64,000 bases of DNA from an uncultured delta proteobacterium (GCA_963796685.1 CAWCMR010000007.1:1-64000); one strand, 5' to 3'. Positions 1,464 through 15,864 are shown, numbered from the stretch's first letter. Made by a program: numbers and translations. Notes: generated from the letters alone by a model not told the origin.

Positions 1464-2258
1464 TCAAGGGTGACGAGCCTCCTCTTCTTGGTACCATCGC
1501 AGAAGGGTGGCGAGGATTGCGGTGACGAAGATGACACTACCGAGGACCCACATGATGGCGCCCCCCAGACGCTGGTCCGAGATGGTGCTGAGTCCCCACC
1601 GTTCGCGAATCATCGCCAGGGCACCGAGCTCGTCGTGCGGGTGGGCGTAGCCGGCATAGAACGGCGTGGTCGAGAAGGCGAAGATGATGCCGAGCAGGGC
1701 ATTGGCGGTCGCCGCCAGCGCCAGGTAGGCAACCGCGAGGAGCGCGGGCATCCGGTGGCCGGCGATGGGCGTCAGGATGGGCCACCACAGGATGGTACCG
1801 GTCACCAGGAACGTGAGATGCTCGAGGATGTGTACACGCTCGTCGGCCAGGGTCAGGTCGTAGAGGGAAGGCAAGTGCCAGATCCACAGGGTGCCGATGG
1901 CAAGCGGCCACGCGACGCCTGGCCGGCGCAAAATACTCTCGACCAGCGCCGCCGGCCGCCAGCGCAGAATTCGGCGAGTCAAGGCAGGGGAAACGCCGAG
2001 CACGAAGAGCGGCGGCGCGACGAACACGAGGAGGATGTGCTGCACCATGTGGGCACTGAACAGGTAGTCGTCCGCCAGGACGTCGAGGGGCGACACCAAG
2101 GCGAGCAACATGATGGCGACGCCCGCAGCGAAGTAGAAGGTCGACCGTTCCAATCGGAAACGGTTGGCCCCCAAGTATCCCCCCATGAGCAGCGACGCGC
2201 CGGCAATCACGGACGGCTCCCAATCCCATCCTCTTCGCAGCAGGTCCCATCCAGTCAT
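1464..2258 (-). CDS. ctaG: caa3-type cytochrome c oxidase assembly factor CtaG
   Basis: SPLDVLADDYLFSAHMVQHILL, WIWHLP, HILEH and DQRLGGAIMW motifs; ATGA overlap with the subunit III stop. Confidence 0.85.
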   Translation of the reverse strand: MTGWDLLRRGWDWEPSVIAGASLLMGGYLGANRFRLERSTFYFAAGVAIMLLALVSPLDVLADDYLFSAHMVQHILLVFVAPPLFVLGVSPALTRRILRWRPAALVESILRRPGVAWPLAIGTLWIWHLPSLYDLTLADERVHILEHLTFLVTGTILWWPILTPIAGHRMPALLAVAYLALAATANALLGIIFAFSTTPFYAGYAHPHDELGALAMIRERWGLSTISDQRLGGAIMWVLGSVIFVTAILATLLRWYQEEEARHP

Positions 2259-2806
2259 ACGAATTTCCATAGGTAGACGACCCCGAATATCACCACCCAA
2301 ACGACGTCGACGAAATGCCAGTAGAGGGAGATCCCCTCGGTGGCCCCCAGGCTCGGTTCCCGGGCATTTCGACCGAGCGAGAGACCCAACAGAATCGAAA
2401 GCATCACCAACCCGACGAATACATGCAGTCCGTGAAAACCGGTCAGGGTGAAGAAGGTGGTGCCGAACAGATCCCGGCTGATGGTGATGTGATGGCGCAG
2501 GAGGTTGGCGTATTCGGTGCCCTGGCCGAACAAGAACACGGCGCCGAGCAGGATGGTCAGCAGCAACCAACAGGCGGCACGGCCGCGCCTGCGCGCCCGC
2601 AGGCCGACCCCGGCCCGCCACACGGTCACGCTGCTGGCGAAGAGGGCCAGCGAGAAAAGGCCCGTCCGGAGGACGTCGAGCGCGCCCGCGGCGTGCGGTC
2701 CCCGGCCACCCGAGAGATGAAAGAACATATAGGCAACCACCAGGAGGAGGAAAAAGTTTGCCTCGGATACGATGAAGAGGACCATACCGAGCTTCGCAGG
2801 GTTCAT
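2255..2806 (-). CDS. coxC: Cytochrome c oxidase subunit III (short form)
   Basis: LFIVSEANFF, FFTLTGFHGLHV and LYWHFVDVVW; this is the 3' part of ORF 2255..4513, with ATG at 2806 overlapping the coxA stop. Confidence 0.92.
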   Translation of the reverse strand: MNPAKLGMVLFIVSEANFFLLLVVAYMFFHLSGGRGPHAAGALDVLRTGLFSLALFASSVTVWRAGVGLRARRRGRAACWLLLTILLGAVFLFGQGTEYANLLRHHITISRDLFGTTFFTLTGFHGLHVFVGLVMLSILLGLSLGRNAREPSLGATEGISLYWHFVDVVWVVIFGVVYLWKFV

Positions 2807-4464
2807 GGCGACTGGGCCTCCTTCCCCGCGGGTTGGGAATGCGTCAGATCCCAAAGCGGGCGTCGTCCGTTGACGGGAGGAACTCGGTCGAAGTTGTGCG
2901 CCGGCGGCGGCGAAGACGTGGCCCATTCGAGGGTCCACGCATTCCAAGGGTTGTCGCCAGCGGCGGCACCACGGCGCCAACCGAAGACCAGATTCACGAT
3001 GAAGAGCAGGATCGCCGCCGCCAGCACGAAGGCAAACAGCGATGAGATGAGATGGAGGATCGGTAGCGGGGGACGGTTCTCGTACGTGTACGCCCTTCTC
3101 GGCATCCCCACCACACCGAGCGCGTGCATCCCGAGAAAGGTCCCGTTGAAGCCGACGACCATGAGCCAGAAGTGCCAGCGACCGATCCTCTCCGACAGTA
3201 GCCGCCCGGTCATTTTGGGGAACCAATAGTAGAATCCCGCGAGCATGGCAAAGAGTGTTCCGCCCAGGAGCACGTAGTGGATGTGCGCGACGACGAAGTA
3301 GCTGTCGGTCAGCTGCCAGTCGATGGGAACCGCGGCGAAGGTGATGCCGCTGAGCCCGCCGATGGTAAACTGGACAAGGAACGCGGTGGCAAACAGCATC
3401 GCCGTGGTCATGCGCAACGAGCCGCCCCACATGGTGGCGATCCAATTGAATATCTTGATACCGGTGGGAACCGCAATGAGCATGCTGCTTGCGGAGAAGA
3501 GGTAGAGAACGGCGAAGTCCAGCCCGGTCGCGAACATGTGATGAACCCACACGGCGAAACTGAGAAAGCCGATGGCCACCGTCGAAGCCGCCATGAAGCC
3601 GTACCCGTAGATCACCTTGCGCGAAAAGACCGGGATGACCTCCGAAATTACGCCAAAGGCAGGGAGAACCAGGATGTAGACCTCGGGATGGCCGAAGAGC
3701 CAAAAGTAGTTCTGCCACAGCAGAGCAGAGCCGCCGGTGGCCGGCGCGAAGAAATGGGCGTTGAGCTGGCGATCGATGAAGAGCATCACCAGCGCGGCGT
3801 TCAGGGCGGGCAGGGCCACGACGACGAGAAAGGCGTTGATGAAGACCATCCATACGAACAGCGGCAATCGTCGCATCGACATCCCGGGCGCTCGCAAAGT
3901 CAAGATGGTGACGATGAGGTTGATACCCGTGGCCACCGAGCCGGCGCCGCTGAGCAAGAGGCTCAACGCCCAGTAGTCCATGCCGGGCGTGATGGAGTAC
4001 CCCTTTTCCGTCAATGGGGCGTAGCTGAACCAGCCGTCGGCCGGCGCGCCCCCTGCAATGAAGCTGAAATACAACAGCAATGCGCTGAAGAGATAGACCC
4101 AGTAGGACCAGGCGTTGAGACGAGGATAGGCCATGTCGCGCGCACCGATCATGAGCGGAACGAGGTAGACGGAAAAGCCGAAAAGGAGAGGCATCGCCAT
4201 CAGAAACACCATCGTGGTGCCGTGCATGGTGAAGACTTGATTGTAGGTGTCCGGCGACATGAAGGTGCTCAAGGGCTTGAGCAGTTGGACACGCATGAAG
4301 AGTGCCTCGGTCATGCCGACCAGGAGAAAGATCAAGGCGGAGGCGATGTACAGGATACCGATCTGCTTGTGGTCCACAGCGGAGACCCAGCCCAGGAGAC
4401 GGCGGTATTCCTTCACATCGCCCAAGGATGCGATGGCACGTACGCTCTGCGGCGCTCCATTCAT
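2803..4464 (-). CDS. coxA: Cytochrome c oxidase subunit I, type A1
   Basis: DHKQIG, HGTTM, FGHPEVY (A1 signature), VWVHHMF, VVAHIHY, GMPRR. Confidence 0.97.
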   Translation of the reverse strand: MNGAPQSVRAIASLGDVKEYRRLLGWVSAVDHKQIGILYIASALIFLLVGMTEALFMRVQLLKPLSTFMSPDTYNQVFTMHGTTMVFLMAMPLLFGFSVYLVPLMIGARDMAYPRLNAWSYWVYLFSALLLYFSFIAGGAPADGWFSYAPLTEKGYSITPGMDYWALSLLLSGAGSVATGINLIVTILTLRAPGMSMRRLPLFVWMVFINAFLVVVALPALNAALVMLFIDRQLNAHFFAPATGGSALLWQNYFWLFGHPEVYILVLPAFGVISEVIPVFSRKVIYGYGFMAASTVAIGFLSFAVWVHHMFATGLDFAVLYLFSASSMLIAVPTGIKIFNWIATMWGGSLRMTTAMLFATAFLVQFTIGGLSGITFAAVPIDWQLTDSYFVVAHIHYVLLGGTLFAMLAGFYYWFPKMTGRLLSERIGRWHFWLMVVGFNGTFLGMHALGVVGMPRRAYTYENRPPLPILHLISSLFAFVLAAAILLFIVNLVFGWRRGAAAGDNPWNAWTLEWATSSPPPAHNFDRVPPVNGRRPLWDLTHSQPAGKEAQSP

Positions 4465-5447
4465 CGTTGTCCCTCCAGGTAGAGCGCGATGGCTCGTGCC
4501 TCGCCTTCAGCAAGACGCAGATTGGGCATGTGGCACTTGGGTTTGTAGCGCTGCGGCCAAAGGATCCACCGCGTGAGATTGTCCAAGTCGTTGGCGAGCA
4601 CGCCCGCCGCCAGGGTTTGGCGGGAACCGACGTGACTCAGGTCCGGCCCGACTTTGCCGGCAGCCTCGCTACCTGCTATCGCGTGGCAGCTCTGGCAGGT
4701 CTTTTCTTGAAAGAGCTGGGCGCCGGTAGCGGCCGGACCTTGGGTGGGCTTCTCGGATACCTGTGTCTGAAGCCGCTCCCATGCGGCGAATGCATCGGGC
4801 GGCTCGATGATAACCCGAATGCCCATCAAGGCGTGCTCGCTGCCGCAGAACTCGGCGCACGTTCCAAGGTAGGTCCCCGGCCGGAGGGGGGTCAGCCACA
4901 GATAGTTGGGATGACCGGGAATGGCGTCCATCTTCGCTCCCAGGTCCGGAACCCAGAAGTCGTGGATGACGTCAGCCGACTCCAGCTTGATGAGCAATCG
5001 CGTGGCTGCCGGCAGGTGAAGCTCGTTCGCCGTCAAGACACCGGATTTGGGATAGTGGTATTCCCACCACCACTGGTGTGCGACCACGAGGACATCAGGC
5101 TGCCGTTCGCGGACGGGCGGATTGATGATGCTCATGGCATGGGCCGTGGCGATGAAGAGGGCGGTCAGGACCAATCCTGGGACCACTGTCCACATCACCT
5201 CCAGCTTTGGATTGCCCTCGTCCTGGGAGGGCTCACGCGCGCCGGGCCGCTGGCGAAATCGTGCAACCGCGTAAAACACGAGCAAGGCGACGGTCAGAAA
5301 GACTGCCGCGGTGAGCGCAAGATCGAAATAGAAGAGCCGGGCGATGGCCTGAGCCTGAGGGCTGTTTGCCGCGAATACCGATGTGTCCCGCAGGGTCATG
5401 GACTGCACCCAGGTCGTGCGAGACACCGTTGGAGGAGGCAATGGCAA
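4461..5447 (-). CDS. coxB: Cytochrome c oxidase subunit II with fused cytochrome c (caa3 type); start uncertain
   Basis: HQWWWEY, DVIHDFW, CuA motif CAEFCGSEHALM, C-terminal CQSCH heme c. Confidence 0.95.
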   Translation of the reverse strand: MPLPPPTVSRTTWVQSMTLRDTSVFAANSPQAQAIARLFYFDLALTAAVFLTVALLVFYAVARFRQRPGAREPSQDEGNPKLEVMWTVVPGLVLTALFIATAHAMSIINPPVRERQPDVLVVAHQWWWEYHYPKSGVLTANELHLPAATRLLIKLESADVIHDFWVPDLGAKMDAIPGHPNYLWLTPLRPGTYLGTCAEFCGSEHALMGIRVIIEPPDAFAAWERLQTQVSEKPTQGPAATGAQLFQEKTCQSCHAIAGSEAAGKVGPDLSHVGSRQTLAAGVLANDLDNLTRWILWPQRYKPKCHMPNLRLAEGEARAIALYLEGQR

Positions 5448-5616
5448 GTCATGGCTTCGCGATGCACGCTAATAGGTCTTGTTGAATGCAGCGGGGCGGA
5501 TCAGTACGCTCGGCTGATGCCCGCTTGGATGCCTACCGGTTGCAAACGGTGTCGGCGGTTTTTCGCTGGTGCCGTTGGAGCAATGAGCAGGGCGCTGATC
5601 TTTGTTCTTGAAAAGG

Positions 5617-5634
5617 CCTGACCCCACGGTCAGG
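5617..5634. promoter_or_regulatory. Perfect dyad CCTGACC-N4-GGTCAGG, candidate operator
   Basis: Lies in the divergent intergenic region, ending 8 nt before ATG 5643. Confidence 0.35.
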
Positions 5635-5642
5635 TTTCGACC

Positions 5643-6167
5643 ATGAGAGCGAGCTTTCATGGAACCTGGTCGCTCCCGACAGTGGTGGTGGTCGTGGTCG
5701 GGACGCTCTTCTTACACACGTCTGCTCGGGCCGAGGAGATCAGCAAGACTGTCAAGGTCGGGCCTTCCGAGGTGACCCTGAAGGTCCTGCCTGCGGAATC
5801 TTTCACGGGTGTGGGCGCCGCCATGGCGCGCGACGGTGGCGCGGAGCCCAATGCAATAGATGGTCGCGAGCATCCCAACCATCATCTCGTCGCTTTCATC
5901 AAGCGAAATGGCAAGCCGGTCGAGGACGCCGCGGTGTCGATCGAGTATCGCGAGCTGGCGGCGAAAGAGGGGAAGCACAAGCCGGATGAGAAGCACAAGC
6001 CGGGTGAATGGACCACGCTTCCGGTCGTGCGCATGCACATGGCCGGCAAGGGGCTCGACACTACTCATTATGGCAACAACGTGAGGCTCGTCCCCGGCAA
6101 GTACGAGGTGCGCGTTACTGTGGGTATCGGCAAGCCGGCACTCTTTCACGTCACGCTATCCTCATAG
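5643..6167 (+). CDS. Secreted His/Met-rich putative metal-binding protein (Tp34/P19-like C-terminus)
   Basis: Signal peptide (..SARA-EE); NHHLVAF; MHM...HYGNNVRLVPGKYEV resembles the HYGxNV..GxY motif of P19/Tp34. Confidence 0.55.
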   Translation: MRASFHGTWSLPTVVVVVVGTLFLHTSARAEEISKTVKVGPSEVTLKVLPAESFTGVGAAMARDGGAEPNAIDGREHPNHHLVAFIKRNGKPVEDAAVSIEYRELAAKEGKHKPDEKHKPGEWTTLPVVRMHMAGKGLDTTHYGNNVRLVPGKYEVRVTVGIGKPALFHVTLSS

Positions 6168-6348
6168 TGAAGCCGCCGGGTGAAGGCTCCGGCTGAAGGA
6201 GTGCTGCGATTCCGAGGCAACTTGTCTCGCGTGGCGGGCTGCCTCATCGCTCGCTCCCCGTCTGGCTGAATTTTCCGCCCGCCCGGCGAGGTCTTTTGGC
6301 GCCGTCCATGCATTCCCCCGTTTCGCTGCCGGGACTCGCACCGGCGAC

Positions 6349-6564
6349 ATGCTTCGGCGGATGCGATGCCACTATGCCTACGTTCGCGACCACGGGTGGA
6401 GCAGCCACCCGGAGTGTCCGTTCGACGTCCGGGGCGTCGAATTCCGCCGGACCTCCGATCCCATGGCCATCGAGATCATCGGTCAGAATCGCGGCGCGGT
6501 CGCCCGGATCCGGAACGGTATCCATGCCGGCGCCCTGGGAGCCGTCGCGGCCCGCGAGAGGTAG
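6349..6564 (+). CDS. Small hypothetical protein or gene remnant with a CH...CP motif
   Basis: Frame is open from ~6184; MRCHYAY..HPECPFDVRGVEF looks protein-like. Confidence 0.3.
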   Translation: MLRRMRCHYAYVRDHGWSSHPECPFDVRGVEFRRTSDPMAIEIIGQNRGAVARIRNGIHAGALGAVAARER

Positions 6565-6799
6565 CAGCTCGGCATCTATTCGAAGGTGACGCTCGGCGGG
6601 CTCTTTGGGGCACTGCGGGCAACGGCAAGCGTCACGGTCCGTCGGGTTTTCGAGGTGAGCTCGCGTAATTTCAGGTACTTGGGCAAGCCTTACCCGATTC
6701 ACGGCGCAACCTCGGGTAGAAGGGGCATCTCCCTTATGCAGGAAAGATGAACCAATCCACCGTCGTCGGAGCCACTGCTGTGCATCTTCGGATCTTTCA

Positions 6800-7438
6800 G
6801 TGCGCATGCCAACTCGTCGTTCCCACGTGCCCTTGTCCCTGGTGGTTGGTGCAGACCGGCGAAATACCAGCGATGGCGACCTCGCGCGCGGTTTGATCGC
6901 GGGTGAGGTCTGGGCCGTGGCCGAGACATGGCATCGTTTTGCGCCCATGGTGCTCACGATGGCCGAACGCTCGTTGGGATCGAGGTCCGAGGCGGACGAC
7001 ATCGGCCAGGAGGTCTTCTACAGCGTGTTCCGCAAGGCGAAGGCGCTGCGCGATCCCGACAGGTTGCGCAGCTTCGTCTATTCGTTTGCCGTCCGCGCGT
7101 TGAAGTCGGAGCTACGTCGCAAGAAACTGCGCTCCTGGCTTTCCTTCGACGAGCCTGAAGCGCTGATGGACTTCGAATGCCAAATGTTGGATGTGGAGTC
7201 GCGCGATCTTCTGCGAAAGTGTCATGCCTTGCTCGACCGCCTGACGCCGCGCGATCGGCTGGTGTTCGTGTTGAGACGCATGGAGTCTATGACGGTGGAG
7301 GAGATTGCCGCGACCATGGACATCTCGGTGTCCACGGTGAAGCGATCGATGGCGCACGCTTCGAATCGGTTGTTGCGCTGGATCGATGCCGACCCTGGGC
7401 TGGCCGGCCTTCTCGACAAAGGGGGGTGGGGACGATGA
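6800..7438 (+). CDS. ECF-family RNA polymerase sigma factor
   Basis: Region 2 DDIGQEVF...LRSFVYSFA; region 4 MTVEEIAATMDISVSTVKRSM. Confidence 0.9.
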   Translation: MRMPTRRSHVPLSLVVGADRRNTSDGDLARGLIAGEVWAVAETWHRFAPMVLTMAERSLGSRSEADDIGQEVFYSVFRKAKALRDPDRLRSFVYSFAVRALKSELRRKKLRSWLSFDEPEALMDFECQMLDVESRDLLRKCHALLDRLTPRDRLVFVLRRMESMTVEEIAATMDISVSTVKRSMAHASNRLLRWIDADPGLAGLLDKGGWGR

Positions 7439-8749
7439 AGGTTACTTCCGCTGAAGAGAAAGATTCTGAAAGGCTAGCTGCGTTCGCCAAGGTGACCCGT
7501 GATGGCGTCAGACAGCGAGCGGCGGTGGAGCTCGACGATGGACTGAAAACGCTCTTGGCACGGATCGCTTCCGGTCGGACGCACCGTCGGGGACTCGTTC
7601 GTTGGTCGTTGGTCGGCGTGACGGCCGCCCTGGGTACCCTGGTGGCTCTGCAAGTCGCTTCGTCGTTGCGCCGGCCCTTGCCCGCTCGCGAGCCGCTGGC
7701 GCTGGCCTACCGCATCGAGGGGGGCAGTGTCCTCGAGGGCGGGTACCTGCGCGAGTCCGGCCACGCTGGCATCCAGCTGCTCTTCAACGAGGGGACCAAA
7801 TTCGCGCTCATGCCGGGTACGCGGGGGCGGCTCCGTGCGGTCAACAAAGAAGGCGCCCGCGTCGCCATCGAGCGTGGCACGGCCTCCTTCCAGGTCACAC
7901 CAGACAGTGATCGGCGGTGGATGGTCGAGGCAGGTCCGTTCCTCATCACGGTCAAAGGCACCGTCTTCACGGTCTCCTGGGATCCGTCGAGCGAGCGTTT
8001 CGAGTCTCGCGTTGCGACGCGGCCGCGTCGTGGTCAGCGGACCAGTTTCGGGCGGAGACATCGTGTTGCGGGCAGGCCAGCGGTTGGTCGTCAATCTGGC
8101 AAGATTGGAGACTCTGATCACCGAAGAGAAGCCCGCGGAGGCCATCGCCGAGCCTGGCGGAGCCCCCGACCTCCATGCTGCCGCCTCGCCCGCCTTGCGC
8201 CCGCCCGCCGTGAGAGACAAGGCCGCCGGAGCGAATGCCTCCGTAACGACTGCTCCATCGTCCGTCGGCAAGCCCGACGGGCAGCGCCGATGGGCCGACG
8301 AGCTGGCGAGCGGCCACTGGGATCGCATCCTCGAGGACGTCGAGCGCGCCGGCGTGGAGGCGACGCTGGACAAGGCCTCGAGCGAAGACCTGTTCGCCCT
8401 TGCCAATGCGGCTCGGTACCGACGGCGAACGGACTTGGCGCGTACGGCACTCCTCGCGGAGCGCCGCCGCTTCCCGGGCTCGCCGCGCGCTCTCGATGCC
8501 ATCTTTCTCCTCGGTCGCGTGGAAGAATCCGGCGAACGGGGGATGGCGCGGGCGATCACGTGGTACGACCAGTACCTGGCTCGCGCACCGACCGGCGCCT
8601 TTGCAGCGGAAGCTCTGGGACGGAAGATGACCCTCGTAGACGAGCTCGAAGGACCGGCAGAGGCACGGCCTATCGCCGAGGAGTATCTGCGCCGTTTTCC
8701 AAGGGGAAGCTATGTCGGATCCGCGCGCGCCCTGTGTCGTGTTCCCTAG
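7435..8749 (+). CDS. FecR-domain anti-sigma factor with C-terminal TPR-like domain (frameshift at ~8005)
   Basis: ATGA overlap with the sigma stop; TM helix then FecR motif (VEAGPFLITVKGTVFTVSW). Removing the extra T at ~8005 joins the frame 7727..8749 (LRRGRVVVSG...YLRRFPRGSY). Confidence 0.8.
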
Positions 8750-8803
8750 TCGCGTGGAGGGCCGAGTGGTTCTGCGGGGCGCACACGTATAGGATGCCTT
8801 CCA

Positions 8804-9859
8804 TTGGATCGCCTACGACTCATGGTCTTTGCTCCGCTTGCTTCGACTTTGCTGTTTTGGGCGGCGCCCGCATCTGCGGTGACGGTGGCCATCGTACGGC
8901 CGTTGAACCCCGCTCCGGAGATGACCGAAACCTTGGTTCGTCTCCATGGAGAATTGCTGTCGGTGGGGATTGAAGTCGAAATTGTCGGCGGCCCGCCCGA
9001 GCGCGGACAGGGCGCAACCGAAACACGTCCTTGGATGAAGGAATTGGCGACCCAGCGTGGTTTCGACGCGGTTATCAACATCGTCGGCGACGGCGGGCTG
9101 GTCGCGGTTGAAGTCTTGGTCGTCGACAAGGCCCCGCGATTCGAATTCTCGCGAGTGGCACTCGAAGCCGGTTCGGAGAACGCCCCGGAGCGGCTGGCGA
9201 TTCGCGCCCTCGAGGTCTTGCGCTCGAGCTTTCTCGAGATCGATCTGGCTGCACGAGAGCGGCGCAGCGAGGTCGGCGCGAAGCCAGCGACAACCACCTT
9301 GCCTCAAGACGGGGTGAACGAGGCGAAGCAGAGGGCAGGCCAGCCCGAACGCCTCGCCTTCGAGGTGGGCGCTGCCGCGCTTACCAGTCTGGATGGCGTC
9401 GGGCCTGCGATCCTGCCCATCATGGGCTTCGGTTGGGTAGCACGCTCATGGCTCGTGGTGCAGGCGGCGCTGGCGGGTCTGGGAAGTCGCCCCACGGTTG
9501 CGACGACCATGGGTACCGCCCGGGTCGCTCAGCAATATGGCGTCCTCGGTGGATGCTATCGCTTTCGCTCCGACCAGCGGTTGCGGCCCTTCCTCTCTCT
9601 CTCGGCGGGTGCGCTGCGTACCGCGGTCGAGGGGCAGGCCGACTTGCCCAAGCAGGGGCACTTCGTGGACCAATGGTCGTTCTTGCTCGACGGGAGCCTA
9701 GGGATGGGGCTCCCCTTGGGCGGGCGTTACTACTTGACCCTGGCGGCGCACGTGCATGTAGCCGAGCCGTACGTGGTCATTCACTTTGTCGATGCGGTGG
9801 TCGCGACGTCTGGGCGTCCCAATCTCCTCTTGACGCTTACCCTCGGTGCTTGGCTATGA
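8804..9859 (+). CDS. Secreted protein with probable C-terminal outer-membrane beta-barrel
   Basis: Signal peptide (APASA); amphipathic strands ending LTLGAWL. Confidence 0.6.
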   Translation: MDRLRLMVFAPLASTLLFWAAPASAVTVAIVRPLNPAPEMTETLVRLHGELLSVGIEVEIVGGPPERGQGATETRPWMKELATQRGFDAVINIVGDGGLVAVEVLVVDKAPRFEFSRVALEAGSENAPERLAIRALEVLRSSFLEIDLAARERRSEVGAKPATTTLPQDGVNEAKQRAGQPERLAFEVGAAALTSLDGVGPAILPIMGFGWVARSWLVVQAALAGLGSRPTVATTMGTARVAQQYGVLGGCYRFRSDQRLRPFLSLSAGALRTAVEGQADLPKQGHFVDQWSFLLDGSLGMGLPLGGRYYLTLAAHVHVAEPYVVIHFVDAVVATSGRPNLLLTLTLGAWL

Positions 9860-10794
9860 CCCGGCGGAGGAGGGTGGGGTTGCTCGGCATCCTTGGCGTT
9901 GTCGTGGGCGTCACCGGTTGCTCGCGCGCCGATGTGTACGCCATCACGGGCGAAACCACCCTCGACGCCAGCGGCGGCGACCAGAGCACAGTCTCGGTCC
10001 CATGCCCCTCGCCCGTGCTGCAGGCGGGGGAAACGAGCGTGACGTTGCAAGTCGGCTCCTTGAGCCGTAGCTATGTGCTGCACATTCCCTCGGCGTATGA
10101 CGGCAGTAAGCCGGTCCCGCTGGTCGTGGACTTTCATGGGATTGGCGGCTCGGGAGCGAGCGAGCTGACGAGCTCACCGTATCCCGCCACGACCGATCCC
10201 GAAGGTGTGGTCATGGCATTTCCGGACGGCCTCAAGGGTCCTGCCGGCACGGCCTGGAATATGGGTCCCTGTTGTGTGGCCAATGTCGACGATGTGTCGT
10301 TTGCCCGGGCCTTGCTGACTGATGTTCAAAGGACCGCTTGCATCGATCCCAAGCGCATTTACGCCGTCGGCGTCTTGACGGGCGGCGGGATGGCCTACTA
10401 CCTTGCGTGCCATGCGGCCGATGTGTTCGCCGCCGTGGCGCCCGCAGCGTTCGATCTCCTGGCCGAGAACGTCGACGACTGCAAACCGACCCGTCCAATC
10501 ACCGAAATCACCTTCCGTGGCACCGCGCCTAGTCGCGTGCCTTACGCGGGCGGCGCGTCCTCCCTGGTGCCCGGCATGCCGATCACGTTCCTCGGCGCGG
10601 TAGCGACCTTCGCGACATGGGCCCAGCTCGACGGTTGCACGGGATCGCCGTCCCAGGCCGACAGCCATGGGTGCTCGAGCTACTCGGGTTGCCAGGCGGG
10701 GGTAGAGGTTATCCTCTGCACCAAGTCGGGCGGCGGTGAGGATCCGGGCGACCCCAGCATCGCTTGGCCCGTGCTCAATCGCCATACGCTCTGA
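9856..10794 (+). CDS. LpqC / PHB-depolymerase-like alpha/beta-fold lipoprotein, apparently catalytically inactive
   Basis: Lipobox VTGC; RSYVLHIP, PLVVDFHG, WNMGPCC and DDVSF motifs; but the nucleophile elbow reads GVLTGGGM. Confidence 0.8.
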   Translation: MTRRRRVGLLGILGVVVGVTGCSRADVYAITGETTLDASGGDQSTVSVPCPSPVLQAGETSVTLQVGSLSRSYVLHIPSAYDGSKPVPLVVDFHGIGGSGASELTSSPYPATTDPEGVVMAFPDGLKGPAGTAWNMGPCCVANVDDVSFARALLTDVQRTACIDPKRIYAVGVLTGGGMAYYLACHAADVFAAVAPAAFDLLAENVDDCKPTRPITEITFRGTAPSRVPYAGGASSLVPGMPITFLGAVATFATWAQLDGCTGSPSQADSHGCSSYSGCQAGVEVILCTKSGGGEDPGDPSIAWPVLNRHTL

Positions 10795-10924
10795 CCGGCA
10801 TCTGACCTGTCCGCCCGCGTTTCCCGCACGGCGACGTCACTTTCTTGGACCAGTTCGCGGGGCCCGTGCAGCTGCCATACGACCTTGGCGCACAAGGTGT
10901 TCGCCTATACGGAGGAGCGCATCG

Positions 10925-12286
10925 ATGAGAACAGTGCATCTGGTAAAGAGCATGGTGGTCGCCGGCATTCTGAGCATCGCCATTGGCGGCTGCGGCAATT
11001 CAGGCAGCGGAGGTGCGAGCACCGGGGGAACGACCAGCCCGGCAGGCGGTGTAGGCGGGGCCTCTGGCTCGGGCGGCACCACCAGCACGGGGAGCGGGAC
11101 GACCGGCACTGGCGGGAGTACAGCGCAAGTCGTCACGGGTGGGGCGACCGGTCATGGTGGGATGGCGGCGTCAGGTGGCTCGCAGGGCACGGGTGGGGTG
11201 CAGGGAACGGGGGGAACGAAAGCCGGCACGGGCGGTTCATCGATGCAAAATAGCGGCGGCGTGGCTACTTCTGGAGGCGCGATTGGCACCGGCGGTGGCA
11301 TGGGCGGCGGGATGACGGGCACGACCGGAGGTGCGGCGACAGGGGGCGGAATGGGAAGCGGCGGTCGTACGTCGTCGTCCACCGGTGGTGCGCCCACCGG
11401 TGGCTCGACAGGTGCGGGTGGAGTTGTCGGCACGGGCGGGGCCGCAGGTGGCAGCACCGGCACCGGGACTTGCACCGCATCCAAGGCCGCGGGCACGAAT
11501 GCATCGGGGAGCGGGCCGCACAAAGTGACCGTCGAGACGAACTCCGACCCCGGGATTAACGAGGGCACCGTTTACCGTCCCACCGACCTGGGGGGCACCG
11601 AAAAGTATCCAATCTTTGCCTGGGGAGAGGGTGGCTGCTCGGAGAACGGATCGTCGAACTCGGCGGCCATGGCCGAGATCGCCTCCCACGGATACTTCGT
11701 CATCGCAGACGGCACGCCGGGCGGGTCGGCCTCTCGCAGCATGGATAGCTCAAACCCCGCGTCGATGGGGACGCCCCTGCTCGCGTACATCACCTGGGCC
11801 ATCGCCGAGAACGCCAAGCCCTGCAGCGCGTACTACCAGAGCCTCGATACCACGAAGATCGCAACCAATGGATTCTCGTGCGGCGGATTGATGGCCGAGG
11901 GCACCGCCGGCGATCCTCGCATTACCACCTGGGGGCTCAACAGCAGCGGGCTGTTTGCTTCGAACCAGGCTTTCTACAAGACGATCCACACACCGGTGCT
12001 GATCGTGCTCGGTGGCTCTGGCGACATCGCGTACACGAACGGCGAGAACGACTACACCAACATCAGCGCGCTCAAGATTCCGATCATGTTGTTCAGCAAG
12101 GCACTCGGTCACGGAGGGGATTTGTTCTCGACCCATGGTGGCGACTTCACCAAGATCGATCTGGCCTGGCTGAACTGGTGGCTGAAGGGTGACGAAGGCG
12201 CGACAGGGAAGGGCGTTCTCGTAGGCTCGGGCTGCACCTATTGCACCGACAGCGCCTGGGAAGTCAAGTCGGCGAACCTGCCGTAG
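10925..12286 (+). CDS. Lipoprotein with long Gly/Thr/Ser linker and an alpha/beta hydrolase domain
   Basis: Lipobox IGGC; ~170-aa low-complexity linker; intact GFSCGG, GDIAY and GHGG triad motifs. Confidence 0.82.
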   Translation: MRTVHLVKSMVVAGILSIAIGGCGNSGSGGASTGGTTSPAGGVGGASGSGGTTSTGSGTTGTGGSTAQVVTGGATGHGGMAASGGSQGTGGVQGTGGTKAGTGGSSMQNSGGVATSGGAIGTGGGMGGGMTGTTGGAATGGGMGSGGRTSSSTGGAPTGGSTGAGGVVGTGGAAGGSTGTGTCTASKAAGTNASGSGPHKVTVETNSDPGINEGTVYRPTDLGGTEKYPIFAWGEGGCSENGSSNSAAMAEIASHGYFVIADGTPGGSASRSMDSSNPASMGTPLLAYITWAIAENAKPCSAYYQSLDTTKIATNGFSCGGLMAEGTAGDPRITTWGLNSSGLFASNQAFYKTIHTPVLIVLGGSGDIAYTNGENDYTNISALKIPIMLFSKALGHGGDLFSTHGGDFTKIDLAWLNWWLKGDEGATGKGVLVGSGCTYCTDSAWEVKSANLP

Positions 12287-12306
12287 GGTGCGCGTGTCGG
12301 GAAATT

Positions 12307-12332
12307 GCGGGCCGCCCGAAGGGCAGGCCCGC
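12307..12332 (+). terminator. GC-rich stem-loop downstream of the hydrolase
   Basis: GCGGGCC-GCCC-GAA-GGGC-A-GGCCCGC; weak U-tract. Confidence 0.35.
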
Positions 12333-12653
12333 GGGTTGGTGTCGTGTTCAGTGAACCTCATGCGCGTCAGGGTTCTGACGAATGCAATTCCGCATGCCTC
12401 AGGATCGTCGCAAATCCGACAGGTTGCACCCATGACCCAACGACCGTGGCGCGACAGGAATGTGACGCTCCATGGAGCCATTGAGTAATAGACACCATCA
12501 CAATTTGCTTAGTTAGCTACACCACAACAATATTCGGCGCTATTATTGAGACATCTTGTTGGGCCGTTTCCCAACCAAGTGACTCCATGGGTTCTTATCC
12601 CGATTCCATGACAAACCGAATGCAACGCCTGCAACAGCGAAGGAAAGTCCTTC

Positions 12654-14012
12654 GTGCTTGCTGAATTGGAAGCGGACCATCTGGTCGGCTTGGTCGTGGG
12701 CGGAGCCTACCAGTTGGTGGGGCGCATTGGCGAAGGTGGCATGGGCGCGGTCTACGAAGCGCACCATCTTCGCCTGCAGAAGCGCGTGGCGGTCAAGCTG
12801 ATGAACCGTGCGATGGTGCGCAACCCCGACGCGCTTGCTCGCTTTCATCGCGAGGCAAGGATCGCCTCGCGTCTCGGTCATCCCAATCTCGTGAACGTTC
12901 TCGATTTCGGCTCCATCGAGGAGGGCCAGCCCTATCTCGTGATGGAATATCTCGAGGGGGAGGATCTCGATCGGCGGATTCATCGCGTCGGCGCGGTGCC
13001 GCTGGCGAATGCTATCCAGATTGCGCGTCAGGTGGCGTCGGCTCTGGCGGTGGTGCACGCGAAAGGCATCGTGCACCGCGATCTCAAGCCGGCCAACGTC
13101 TTTCTCGTACAAGTGCCCGGCGAGCCGGACTTCGTCAAGGTTCTCGACTTCGGTGTCTCGAAGATCAAGGCGGCGCGAACCAAGCTTACGGATGCGTGTA
13201 CGGTGCTTGGCACCCCCGAGTACATGTCGCCCGAGCAGGCATCCGCTTCGGGCGACGACATCGATCATCGCGCCGATCAATGGGCACTGGCCTGTATCGT
13301 GTGGGAGATGTTGTCGGGCCGCACCCCCTTCGCCGCCGACCATACCGATGCCGTCTTCTACCAATTGGCCAACCTCGCCCCGCCGCCTCTGGCGAAGCAC
13401 GCGCCCGACTTGCCCTCGGCGGTAGAGTCGGTTCTGCTTCGCGCGCTGTCCAAGCGGGCCTTGGATCGCTATGCCTCGATGCGGGAGTTCGCACGTGCGC
13501 TTGAAATGGCCGCGCTCGGCAGTTGCAGCGATTTTACGCCCATGCCCCTCGAACGCGCAAAGACGGTTGCGAAGTGCGAGGCGAATGCATCGGGCGAGGA
13601 CGTCTCGGATGTTCCGCTCGAGCTTCATCCGGCAAGGCGGCGCGCCTTCGCAATCAGGCCCATTCTCGCCGGATTGGCGATCGTGCTTGTCATCACCGTG
13701 GGTAGTGTGTTGTTCGCCGGGGCACGCGGCACGGTGGGCAAGACCGCCCAACAGGCAGCCATCGCCGCCGTGTCGGTCGTGCAGGTCAGGCCTGCCTTGC
13801 CGATCGTGGTGCCCAAGCAGGAGCTTGCCGAGGAGGCAACGGGTGCGGAACCGACGGGTTCCCCGTCGATGGCCGATGCGCTGGGAAGGGCGAATTCCTT
13901 CACCGGCTCCGCCGTGTCGCGCGCGCGACGTTCGAAGTCCCGCGACAAGCGGCCAGCCGGCCGCCTCATGGCGAGGCCGATTGGCACGAGGCCCATCTTC
14001 GAGGCGCTATGA
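12654..14012 (+). CDS. Ser/Thr protein kinase (Hanks type) with TM helix
   Basis: GEGGMGAVY, VAVK, HRDLKPAN, DFG, GTPEYMSPEQ. Confidence 0.95.
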   Translation: MLAELEADHLVGLVVGGAYQLVGRIGEGGMGAVYEAHHLRLQKRVAVKLMNRAMVRNPDALARFHREARIASRLGHPNLVNVLDFGSIEEGQPYLVMEYLEGEDLDRRIHRVGAVPLANAIQIARQVASALAVVHAKGIVHRDLKPANVFLVQVPGEPDFVKVLDFGVSKIKAARTKLTDACTVLGTPEYMSPEQASASGDDIDHRADQWALACIVWEMLSGRTPFAADHTDAVFYQLANLAPPPLAKHAPDLPSAVESVLLRALSKRALDRYASMREFARALEMAALGSCSDFTPMPLERAKTVAKCEANASGEDVSDVPLELHPARRRAFAIRPILAGLAIVLVITVGSVLFAGARGTVGKTAQQAAIAAVSVVQVRPALPIVVPKQELAEEATGAEPTGSPSMADALGRANSFTGSAVSRARRSKSRDKRPAGRLMARPIGTRPIFEAL

Positions 14013-14992
14013 CGGTCATGTTCGCGGCGTCCCTCGTCATGATGTCCCTGCTCGGGCAAGGGGCGCGTGAGACGTCGCCATCCGGCGAGGCCAAGGCCAA
14101 GGCCCAGGTCCTGCTCAGACGGGGAACGCAACACTACCGGCACGCCGAGATTGCCGACGCGCTCGCGGACTTCAGAACGGCCTACGGGATCTTTCCAAGT
14201 CCCAAGCTGCTCTTCAACATCGGCCAGTGCAGCCGCGATCTCGGTCGGCCCGTCGAAGCCATCGCAGCCTTCGAGCAATTCCTCGCCGAGGTTCCCGACG
14301 AATCCGGGGGGATGGTGGCAGAAGCCAGGCGCTCGGTGGAGGAGCTCTCCATGGAAGTGGGCAAGTTGCTCATCGAATGCCCGGTATCCGGTGCGCAGAT
14401 CGAGCTGGACGGAAAGAACATCGGCGCTGCGCCCATCAAGAGCTTGGTGCGTGTCACGCCTGGATACCATCAGCTGACGGCGGTTCGCGAGGGTAGCTCG
14501 CCGGTCATGCGGGAGACCCATGTTCTTGCGGGAACCCTCGAGACCGTCGTGCTACAGCCCCGGGCGTCGGTCGATGGGACGCGTGCGAAGGCCGGGGGCA
14601 CCAACAAGCCTCCGCTGCTGGCTTCCGGCCGGTCCAACCGGAGCGCACGCAGCGGCGGCGACTGGTTGCTGGGGCGGACATGGACTTGGGTGGCCACGGG
14701 CTCGGCGATCGTCTTTGCAGGAGGCGCGACTGCAGCGGGCTTGGTGATGCGGTCGAAGTTCAAAGCCCTGGACGCCAGCTGTGGCCGCTCTTCCGGCGAG
14801 ACCTACACGGGGTGCAATTCGAGCGACTTCGCCGCTCTTGATTCTTGGAAGACCACGGCCAACGTGCTGTGGGGACTGTCCGCCGCCGCGGCGATGACCG
14901 CGGGAGTGCTATTTTACGTCGAGGGCCGCGGGGTGGATGTTTCACCCAGCGCGGGCCAGGTGATTGGTTTGACCGCGAGCATGAGGTATTGA
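14009..14992 (+). CDS. TPR + PEGA domain protein
   Basis: PKLLFNIGQC..LGR..EAI..FEQFL; PEGA motif GAQIELDG..IG.AP...V.PG.H; ATGA overlap with the kinase. Confidence 0.8.
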   Translation: MTVMFAASLVMMSLLGQGARETSPSGEAKAKAQVLLRRGTQHYRHAEIADALADFRTAYGIFPSPKLLFNIGQCSRDLGRPVEAIAAFEQFLAEVPDESGGMVAEARRSVEELSMEVGKLLIECPVSGAQIELDGKNIGAAPIKSLVRVTPGYHQLTAVREGSSPVMRETHVLAGTLETVVLQPRASVDGTRAKAGGTNKPPLLASGRSNRSARSGGDWLLGRTWTWVATGSAIVFAGGATAAGLVMRSKFKALDASCGRSSGETYTGCNSSDFAALDSWKTTANVLWGLSAAAAMTAGVLFYVEGRGVDVSPSAGQVIGLTASMRY

Positions 14993-14994
14993 AC

Positions 14995-15864
14995 ATGGGG
15001 AAGCTCGGCATGACACCGCTCGTCTGCGCCCTGCTAGGGTCCTGTACCTACGACGCCGAGCGGTTGCTTCCACCGGTTGATAGGTCACCGGTTGGCGATG
15101 CCTTGCGCTCGGACACGGCGGCGGACCTTCGCGAACCCGATGTCTGGAAGACCGATTCCCGCGACGCAGGCGTCGCCCAGGAGCGCGAGGCGGGCACGCG
15201 CGGGCCCGGCGCTCCCGACGCCGACGGGACGAGCAGCGCCATGGGCAGCAAGATTGAGGAAGCGACCTTCCTGTCCGGTCGTGCACAGGGCGCTCTCACG
15301 GGTCTGGGGTACGTAAGTCTTGGCGTGATTGATGCGGTCACTTCCCCCACCTGCAGCGGGATGCAAATTGGTGGGCTTTCTCCATCCATGCCTCCCGTGA
15401 CATTCAATTCGACCTGTCGACCCTCGTCCATCACGTGGGATTCCGCAACGGGCCTTTGTGTGTCCGGCACCATCCCGGGCGAATCGTCCTATCCCAGCTA
15501 CATGGACTACATGATTGACTGGGGGATCTTGGTCGGCGTCGCGACCCGAGAGCCGGTGCAGGCGATTGGCATCGCCTACAGTAGCATCACCCTGATAGTA
15601 TCGGGATGGGACTCGGACAATCTGTTCGCGGTGGTGCATCTGGCCGACGATGCGAGCGGCTTGACGTACTGTTCCCGCATGACGTCGGGCATCCCCATCA
15701 AGCTTTCCTCCTTCAACACGGAATGCCTATTCGGCAGCGGCAAGCGCTTGGCCGAAGCGGACGTGCAAAACATCGACAAGATCGGTGTTCAAATTCCACC
15801 GTCGCAGTCCGACCTGACGGTTGCGGATTTCTGCCTCGGCAAGATCGCGCTCGCCCGGCCTTAG
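14995..15864 (+). CDS. Hypothetical lipoprotein
   Basis: Lipobox LLGSC; low-complexity linker followed by a Cys-containing beta-rich domain. Confidence 0.7.
   Translation: MGKLGMTPLVCALLGSCTYDAERLLPPVDRSPVGDALRSDTAADLREPDVWKTDSRDAGVAQEREAGTRGPGAPDADGTSSAMGSKIEEATFLSGRAQGALTGLGYVSLGVIDAVTSPTCSGMQIGGLSPSMPPVTFNSTCRPSSITWDSATGLCVSGTIPGESSYPSYMDYMIDWGILVGVATREPVQAIGIAYSSITLIVSGWDSDNLFAVVHLADDASGLTYCSRMTSGIPIKLSSFNTECLFGSGKRLAEADVQNIDKIGVQIPPSQSDLTVADFCLGKIALARP

Follow-up and report, generated by a model that had tools for sequence, protein, structure and literature searches.

A predicted dead-esterase lipoprotein as candidate sensor of an ECF sigma factor/FecR-TPR module in an uncultured delta proteobacterium

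Analysis of a 64,000-nt stretch of DNA from an uncultured delta proteobacterium (GCA_963796685.1 CAWCMR010000007.1:1-64000, hereafter the window) revealed that the region 6739-12286 holds one copy of a conserved module encoding an extracytoplasmic function (ECF) sigma factor, a FecR-type anti-sigma factor ending in tetratricopeptide repeats (TPR), an outer-membrane beta-barrel protein and an esterase-like lipoprotein, followed by a hydrolase gene. We propose, with a probability of roughly 0.55, that an ester-linked polymer is the likely signal of the module and the adjacent hydrolase gene its likely target. The promoter motif and its positions, the conservation of the module and the loss of catalytic residues under purifying selection are direct results of the computation. 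An earlier note on this DNA had described the gene set, both ATGA couplings and a 130-nt gap before the hydrolase gene, all of which were confirmed on re-reading the coordinates, and had interpreted the lipoprotein as a pseudoenzyme that signals through the barrel protein and the anti-sigma factor, for which we found partial support; those of its suggested computational checks that were carried out all favored this interpretation. The names carried by homologues and by related contigs indicate a metagenome-assembled genome of the Polyangia (Myxococcota).

The lipoprotein matched the NCBIfam model for the catalytic domain of type-1 polyhydroxyalkanoate depolymerases (NF050058, E = 1.8e-30, below the model cut-off) and, weakly, Pfam family PF10503, and its closest solved relatives were the feruloyl/acetyl-xylan esterase 9j07 (E = 1.2e-20) followed by the feruloyl esterase 8jh8. 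Foldseek comparison of an AlphaFold2 model (pTM 0.77; residues 1-46 disordered with pLDDT below 50) returned 9j07, 8jh8 and the polyhydroxybutyrate (PHB) depolymerase 8daj as top matches (E = 6e-15 to 5e-12). The protein thus has the alpha/beta-hydrolase fold of CE1 and PHB-depolymerase enzymes but lacks their Ser-Asp-His triad, as the corresponding positions are occupied by L174, P225 and G294. The claim of the earlier note that all three positions are substituted was borne out for the nucleophile, where L174 aligns with the Ser of GxSxG, for the acid, where P225 aligns with the Asp of GTAD (9j07, 8jh8), and for the absence of the His; the His position, however, is G294 and not E295 when the conserved PG serves as anchor of the alignment. 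As had been stated, the protein has retained an intact lipobox (VTGC) and Cys pattern. In addition, a short-read contig from an independent run spans 10237-10381, including the TTG codon at 10375-10377, and differs from the assembly at a single position, 10338.

A scan of species-representative genomes with an alignment of the barrel protein recovered the order sigma, FecR-TPR, barrel, lipoprotein in 64 loci, with a sigma gene upstream of the barrel gene in 58 and a FecR-TPR gene in 60 of them, the misses falling mostly at contig ends. The genome studied here contains four barrel genes, each preceded by sigma and FecR-TPR genes. Around the window's copy, only positions 6740-12286 are shared with the closest relative, the cassette flanks being non-syntenic. 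The locus described in the earlier note is not an isolated case; it represents one subtype of a larger family that includes lipoproteins of GH141-like and GH29-like type. Two loci, L062 and L117, carry the full module on contigs in bins titled Acidobacteriota and Gemmatimonadaceae; mis-binning appears more likely than transfer, since their proteins nest among Polyangia copies in the tree.

Loss of the catalytic residues was found to track the sigma-FecR-barrel context, a relation that the earlier note had proposed to test. An LpqC-like gene lies directly behind the barrel gene in 52 of the 64 loci, and among the 50 copies with a readable nucleophile position the Ser is missing in 46 (replaced by Leu, Gly or Ala) and kept in four, compared with 18/18 LpqC-like genes elsewhere in the same loci that retain it. 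Within this genome alone, the Ser is missing in all three cassette copies and kept in all 13 others. A full triad was present in 0/45 cassette copies versus 11/14 non-cassette paralogues; ten of the 45 possess none of the three residues, 27 only the Asp, four Asp and His, and another four Ser and Asp. In a quick maximum-likelihood tree, the 46 cassette copies with long alignments formed one clade (SH-aLRT 96) adjoining Ser-bearing paralogues, with Leu, Ala or Gly in place of the Ser marking different subclades. The 120 nearest database homologues gave a similar picture, with Leu in 92, Gly in 22, Ala in four, and Val and Ser in one each at the nucleophile position, while the Asp was kept in 87 and the His in at least 34.

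Purifying selection acts on the pseudoesterase gene, as dN/dS lies between 0.14 and 0.41 in 21 pairs of orthologues and is 0.15 for the two closest ones. Together with that of the sigma gene, this latter value is the lowest in the cassette, where the other genes range from 0.11 to 0.50. Orthologues in the same context with a full triad and neutral decay confined to this genome, which the earlier note had named as a finding against its interpretation, were not seen among the 45 copies and 21 pairs. Taken together, these comparisons indicate that the LpqC-like lipoprotein is a retained, presumably inactive pseudoenzyme and not a product of local decay.

Directly behind the lipobox, the lipoprotein carries a short motif, C-x-R-x-D/N-L/V-Y/D-A/P-I/L/V-T, which reads CSRADVYAIT in the present copy. 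Using a regular expression, we found it at this site, directly behind the barrel gene, in 59 of the 66 loci with room to look, and only 63 times in 1,265,574 residues of the six-frame translation of all loci; in most of them the lipoprotein Cys lies about 63 nt past the barrel stop. Four kinds of domain follow the motif: the CE1-like pseudoesterase, a distant esterase-like domain whose nucleophile position is occupied by Ala (GFAWG, GVALG), a beta-helix protein of GH141-like type (E = 3.6e-85 to BT_1002) and a GH29-like domain accompanied by an F5/8-C domain, as in the copy on contig C25 of this genome. For BT1002, D523 has been described as putative nucleophile and D564 as acid/base (PMC10154630); the chain numbering runs five positions later, as deduced from the distance of 41 residues between these two Asp. 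The position of D523 is occupied by Gly in all five GH141-like cassette copies and by Asp in 4/4 paralogues of about 70% identity, which are encoded a short distance before the sigma gene of these loci; the second Asp, at the D564 position, is kept in all copies. The GH29 nucleophile is described in the same source as the conserved Asp at the end of strand beta-4 (PMC10154630). The four cassette-linked GH29-like copies all read F-T-[AG]-W, with Thr for Asp, and a further copy next to which no barrel gene is visible also carries Thr. Five GH29-like paralogues outside cassettes read [IM]-D-G-W, and it is the Asp of this DGW motif that we take to be the nucleophile. A putatively dead copy in the cassette alongside apparently intact copies outside it is a pattern that recurs in three unrelated folds. 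Because the same design recurs with the GH141-like and GH29-like lipoproteins, the dead-enzyme domain most likely sets the specificity of the module.

The barrel protein (345 or 351 residues), termed barrel-like in the earlier note, was predicted by AlphaFold2 (mean pLDDT 76.6) to consist of a signal peptide, an alpha/beta domain (21-151), a disordered linker and an 8-strand membrane beta-barrel (178-344 of the 345-residue form). Foldseek matched the model to OmpA, OmpW, OmpX, NspA and Ail (E = 1e-7 to 1e-5) and its N-terminal part faintly to TolB, and a language-model search gave OMP_b-brl, TolB_N and LpoB clusters, to be taken as leads only. Neither Pfam nor NCBIfam models matched the protein, and among 120 listed members of its at least 771 relatives no Pfam domain was found. 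It differs from OmpA proper in that PF00691, the C-terminal OmpA_C domain that binds peptidoglycan, is not matched, the barrel is C-terminal and the extra alpha/beta domain is N-terminal. The protein is thus modelled as a small eight-stranded barrel of OmpA/OmpW type that is preceded by an alpha/beta domain.

The sigma protein was assigned to ECF group 4, as it comprises regions 2 and 4 only in about 200 residues (Pfam Sigma70_r2, E = 9.9e-10, and r4_2, E = 1.8e-13; NCBIfam TIGR02937, E = 6.4e-20 and 71.4 bits at a cut-off of 42.9). The gene directly behind it, joined by an ATGA overlap of stop and start at 7435, encodes a FecR domain (PF04773, E = 2.3e-6, 28.4 bits, cut-off 24) preceded by one membrane segment, a hydrophobic stretch judged by eye only, as is characteristic of FecR-like anti-sigma factors; the C-terminal part resembles TPR_16 (E = 2.1e-6, below the Pfam cut-off). 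A second ATGA overlap at 9856-9859 couples the barrel and lipoprotein genes.

An ECF-type promoter shared by the sigma operon and the hydrolase gene, which the earlier note had proposed to look for upstream of 6800 and 10925, was found and is conserved across loci, the hydrolase site being the weaker one. Its consensus is TGAACC-N17/18-GCGACTGC, in full form ATGAACC-N17/18-CGACTGC, and 39 of 56 sigma-upstream regions carry it with at least 11 of 14 matches, at a distance of about 50 nt from the start of the sigma gene. The position weight matrix (PWM) was built from 36 sites, all sigma-upstream and including the one at 6739-6781, so that the score of 41.3 for this site, the best in the genome, is that of a training site. 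The site at 10837-10878, before the hydrolase gene, scores 10.8, combines a good -35 element (TTGGACC) with a weaker -10 element (CAGCTGC) and is the only other match of at least 9 on the plus strand of the window. Its weight derives from its position and conservation: in related loci, 17 of 24 regions upstream of the hydrolase gene score at least 10.8, whether that gene lies downstream, upstream or on the opposite strand, and the same element is visible in three of the seven that score lower, while the background at this threshold is 207 of 14,617,300 positions.

The hydrolase itself appears intact, as had been suggested, since its Ser (GFSCG), Asp and His align with those of the P. mendocina lipase/cutinase 2fx5 (E = 3.7e-14; GFSCG/GHSQG, GGSGD/GGGDT, GHGG/SHFE). 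Similarity to PET hydrolases was also detected (E about 4e-4 to 1e-3), a long Gly/Thr/Ser-rich linker is present, and no Pfam family was matched; the product is best described as an active-looking, predicted cutinase/PETase-like lipoprotein.

The second-best PWM site of the genome (28.3), on contig C13, precedes a paralogue of the hydrolase, likewise a lipoprotein with an intact GHSQG, and then a GH11 xylanase lipoprotein, which makes this pair a candidate remote member of the regulon; scores of at least 16 are reached 30 times in 14.6 million positions (7.3 Mb genome). Promoter sites were also found before intact LpqC paralogues in the loci L071, L077 and L103 and before divergent genes. At L054:10324, L056:5076 and L059:5058, strong promoter-like sites (19.5-30) lie past the cassette on the minus strand, each facing a further gene. 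The sigma genes of this genome's own cassettes L119 and L120 and of the GH141-type locus L060 are not preceded by any site with a PWM score of at least 9, and these sigma paralogues may use diverged promoters.

The anti-sigma gene requires separate comment. Its family and position had been given correctly in the earlier note, but a 1-nt frameshift near 8005 was overlooked, which splits the gene into an N part with the anti-sigma region, the membrane segment and most of the FecR domain, and a C part with the end of the FecR domain, a Pro/Ala linker and the TPR. An orthologue (L030:2469-3791) is in frame throughout, with FecR at 113-198 and TPR_16 at 324-391. DNA alignment with the orthologues of three related genomes (G001, G005, G006) identified an extra base in TTCGAG|T|CTC, and a fourth genome, G002, carries a different extra base within the same hexamer. 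By dS, G001, which is in frame, and G002 are nearer to each other than to the genome studied here, so that the two insertions must be independent events or artefacts. The part 3' of the frameshift is still constrained (dN/dS 0.21 against G001 and 0.16 against G002). Comparison of this assembly with G001 in scattered orthologous segments (38,565 aligned columns) gave 22 uncompensated gap clusters of a length other than a multiple of three, mostly of one base, and a frame switch was seen in one of 11 further orthologous proteins. Real pseudogenes would produce a far lower indel rate, and the frameshift is therefore most likely an assembly indel. One or both of the assemblies G000 (this genome) and G001 carry many indel errors, and apparent pseudogenes in this genome should be treated with caution. 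Three public runs contained 0.04-0.05 of the sampled words, and their contigs miss 7990-8020.

Two other origins of the frameshift were considered. A motif-wide artefact at GAGCTC is unsupported, the hexamer not being depleted genome-wide (4480 observed vs 5288 expected), and programmed frameshifting was rejected because the zero frame offers neither a slow codon nor a stop, because the two genomes with an extra base do not have the same one, and because in-frame orthologues exist. The FecR-TPR genes of other cassettes are also frame-split (L064/L038 (G001:C7), L067/L037, L069, L117), and in L117 the barrel gene is spread over several frames; these may reflect errors or decay. In the GH29-like open reading frame (ORF) at L118:5074-6948 (G000:C25), about 120 Arg-rich nonsense codons follow the F5/8-C domain, suggestive of a further frameshift or of a stop codon lost close to the end.

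Based on these observations, we propose a mechanism in which four parts would act together: an ECF sigma factor that regulates its own operon, a FecR-TPR anti-sigma factor that crosses the membrane once, a dedicated OmpA-like barrel whose N-terminal domain lies in the periplasm, and a dead-esterase lipoprotein of the outer membrane. The lipoprotein would dock to the barrel protein via its conserved N-terminal motif, and its dead site would bind, without cleavage, a soluble, ester-linked fragment released from a polymer of plants or microbes, such as a polyester oligomer or a xylo-oligosaccharide with acetyl or feruloyl groups. The occupied complex would be recognized by the anti-sigma factor through its TPR end, whereupon the anti-sigma factor would be removed by regulated proteolysis, a step drawn solely from the analogy with FecR. 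The freed sigma factor could then transcribe its own operon and the adjacent hydrolase gene from the TGAACC-N17/18-GCGACTGC promoters, and possibly also the distant paralogue next to the GH11 xylanase on contig C13. A lipoprotein that faces the periplasm is at least as likely as the surface-exposed one of the earlier note, and we lean towards the former, since export of a folded domain of 30 kDa by a barrel of eight strands is improbable. With acetyl-xylan and feruloyl esterases as nearest structural relatives and a xylanase in the candidate regulon, the data point to decorated hemicellulose at least as much as to polyesters as ligand class.

A more general proposal, for which we see slightly less than even odds, is that Polyangia possess a hitherto undescribed four-component class of trans-envelope signaling systems, in which a lipid-anchored, nucleophile-dead paralogue of a secreted enzyme acting on carbohydrates or esters (CE1-like, GH141-like or GH29-like), docked by a common N-terminal peptide to a dedicated OmpA-like barrel, would serve as substrate-trapping receptor and control a FecR-TPR/ECF polymer-degradation regulon. 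If true, dead enzymes would constitute a general modular device for ligand specificity in ECF systems of diderms.

Several points weigh against the proposed sensing function. The related genomes are non-independent samples, and the tree stems from a quick maximum-likelihood search only. Four cassette copies (L077, L084, L085, L103) keep Ser and Asp without the His, and some cassette members may thus retain residual activity. The sensor (CE1-like) and its target (cutinase-like) belong to different alpha/beta-hydrolase families, so that "dead paralogue of the target" is not literally true for the CE1-like subtype. At a score of 10.8 the hydrolase promoter is weak here, and about one such match is expected per 64-kb strand by score alone. 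Moreover, should the frameshift be genuine, the present copy would be unable to use its TPR for sensing. Finally, the barrel and lipoprotein genes are part of the autoregulated operon and could therefore be outputs, e.g. a non-hydrolytic substrate-binding pair, instead of inputs.

This last point leads to the alternative that survives best, although we consider it unlikely: barrel and dead-enzyme lipoprotein would form a non-catalytic pair for substrate binding or uptake, of the SusD/SusE type or with an OmpW/FadL-like channel for hydrophobic monomers, and the sigma/anti-sigma pair would only co-express them while sensing something else, such as envelope stress or a kinase signal. The placement of all four genes behind the autoregulated promoter and the OmpW-type barrels among the fold matches are compatible with this arrangement, as is the presence of Ser/Thr kinases near genes of the catalogued sigma factor group ECF267 (PMC7826278) and behind the present cassette (12654-14012), although the flanks, the kinase gene included, are non-syntenic with the closest relative. 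Against an output pair speak the 1:1 linkage of each sigma/anti-sigma pair with its own barrel and lipoprotein over 64 loci and the separate promoter copies that the enzymes proper have outside the operon, and the conservation of the N-terminal motif regardless of fold argues for a fixed protein partner and not for substrate handling.

Far less probable is that the lipoprotein remains an enzyme with a non-canonical catalytic set, or that the module is decaying in this genome. The frameshift at about 8005 could be read as a sign of decay, and Ser, His and Asp residues are invariant elsewhere in the pseudoesterase clade (H76, H94, S107, S235, S266, D92, D146, D200). However, H76, H94 and S107 look structural because they are also conserved in the active paralogues, the nucleophile position varies (Leu, Gly or Ala) and the Asp and His decay in parallel. 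Decay is also difficult to reconcile with a dN/dS of 0.15 for the lipoprotein against its two nearest orthologues, with substitutions common to the genus and beyond, and with the constraint past the frameshift (dN/dS 0.16-0.21), and the 22 uncompensated gap clusters in 38.6 kb fit sequencing indels. Least probable of all is an envelope-integrity monitor of the RcsF/OMP type with the enzyme-like domain as scaffold only, for although the disordered residues 1-46 would give a tethered lipoprotein beside a small outer-membrane protein, an arrangement we liken to RcsF with OmpA, the globular domain is swapped among three CAZyme folds, each up to about 70% identical to an active enzyme nearby or in related genomes, and the regulon genes found encode secreted hydrolases, which favors substrate specificity over a generic stress signal.

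The coordinates of all features are compiled in Table 1. Outside the module, the window contains a Ser/Thr protein kinase gene (Pkinase, E = 2.5e-48) and, starting at the kinase stop, a TPR/PEGA gene, which together occupy 12654-14992. Upstream of the cassette, on the minus strand, 2255-5447 hold cytochrome c oxidase genes, one for subunit II fused to a cytochrome c domain and an ORF resembling subunit III, which are unrelated to the module.

Table 1. Features of the module and of a candidate remote target; coordinates refer to the window unless a contig is named.
Feature	Position	Strand	Remarks
ECF-type promoter of the sigma operon	6739-6781	+	ATGAACC 6747-6753, 18-nt spacer, CCACTGC 6772-6778
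ECF sigma gene	6800-7438	+	ORF with GTG at 6800; conserved ATG 6806; Sigma70_r2, r4_2, TIGR02937
FecR-TPR anti-sigma gene, two frames	7435-8749	+	N part 7435 to ~8005; C part ~8006-8749
1-nt insertion site (frameshift) in the anti-sigma gene	8003-8012	+	DNA alignment with orthologues
Outer-membrane barrel protein gene	8804-9859	+	Database start ATG 8822; AlphaFold2 model, Foldseek
Pseudoesterase lipoprotein gene (predicted)	9856-10794	+	312 aa; CE1 / PHB-depolymerase-like fold
Lipobox Cys22 and N-terminal motif	9919-9948	+	CSRADVYAIT
Nucleophile position of GxSxG	10375-10377	+	TTG = Leu174
Catalytic Asp position	10528-10530	+	CCT = Pro225 (GTAD -> GTAP)
Catalytic His position	10735-10737	+	GGT = Gly294 (GGH-x-x-PG -> GGG-E-D-PG)
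Intergenic gap, 130 nt	10795-10924		Between lipoprotein and hydrolase genes
Second, weaker ECF-type promoter in the 130-nt gap	10837-10878	+	TTGGACC 10845-10851, 17-nt spacer, CAGCTGC 10869-10875
Hydrolase lipoprotein gene (predicted)	10925-12286	+	453 aa; cutinase/PETase-like
Candidate regulon genes on C13	G000 contig C13:35351-37900 (L121:2351-4915)		Hydrolase paralogue and GH11 xylanase

ECF sigma factors rank with the most abundant signaling devices of bacteria, and the inputs of most groups are not known. The module offers a concrete candidate input for a group so far only catalogued, namely a dead enzyme that would keep the binding site of its relatives. If this holds true, the fold of the pseudoenzyme would name the substrate class, so that specificity could be read from sequence, which would be of use in annotating regulons for the breakdown of plant polymers and polyesters in soil myxobacteria, nearly all of them uncultured. 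In addition, the three folds would represent three independent cases of pseudoenzymes retained under selection, a new role as signaling adaptors is suggested for small outer-membrane barrels, and the promoter motif and the modular lipoprotein are possible parts for inducible expression or biosensors.

A search limited to a library of open-access papers retrieved no description of a dead-enzyme lipoprotein and a barrel as partners of an ECF/FecR system, and comparison with established systems reveals partial overlap in each case. With the CE1 and PHB-depolymerase esterases (acetyl xylan esterase B 9j07, 8jh8, 8daj) the lipoprotein shares the fold, the HG oxyanion motif and the Cys pattern, but other residues stand in place of Ser, Asp and His, and a full triad is found in none of its cassette-linked relatives. 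The FecA-FecR-FecI system likewise combines an ECF sigma factor and an anti-sigma factor with a single-pass FecR domain with an outer-membrane component encoded alongside. In the present case, however, the anti-sigma factor ends in TPR, an 8-strand barrel and a lipoprotein are found in place of a TonB-dependent transducer, and a signaling (STN) domain is missing. In agreement with the earlier note, no TonB-dependent receptor was detected by Pfam in the six cassette proteins and four flanking ORFs or by inspection of the ORFs within 4500-15500, and these ORFs likewise include no such transducer with an N-terminal signaling domain.

By its published description, on which the comparison rests, the group ECF267 of the ECF classification 2.0 (Casas-Pastor et al. 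2021, PMC7826278), known from Sorangium and Chondromyces and with kinases nearby, resembles the module in its occurrence in Polyangia, in the FecR-TPR gene at position +1 and in the lack of a TonB-dependent receptor. That description names no conserved +2/+3 genes and characterizes the target promoters as not conserved, whereas barrel, dead-enzyme lipoprotein and promoter motif are conserved here. What was known before is thus the catalogued group, with barrel, lipoprotein and promoter absent from its entry, and, from RsgI6, the principle of a low-activity sensor derived from an enzyme.

The analogy to RsgI sensors drawn in the earlier note proved apt, as the GH10 module of RsgI6, which is 57% identical to the target Xyn10D, is reported to have very low activity and to function as a binding sensor (PMC4711584). 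SigI/RsgI6 resembles the proposed system in combining an enzyme-derived sensor with an autoregulated alternative sigma factor that drives active relatives of the sensor (PMC4711584). The module is nevertheless distinct from SigI/RsgI, which operates in monoderms with a SigI-type sigma factor and a sensor fused to the anti-sigma factor, whereas here an ECF-type sigma factor and a FecR-TPR anti-sigma factor are accompanied by a barrel protein and a candidate sensor encoded as a separate lipoprotein gene.

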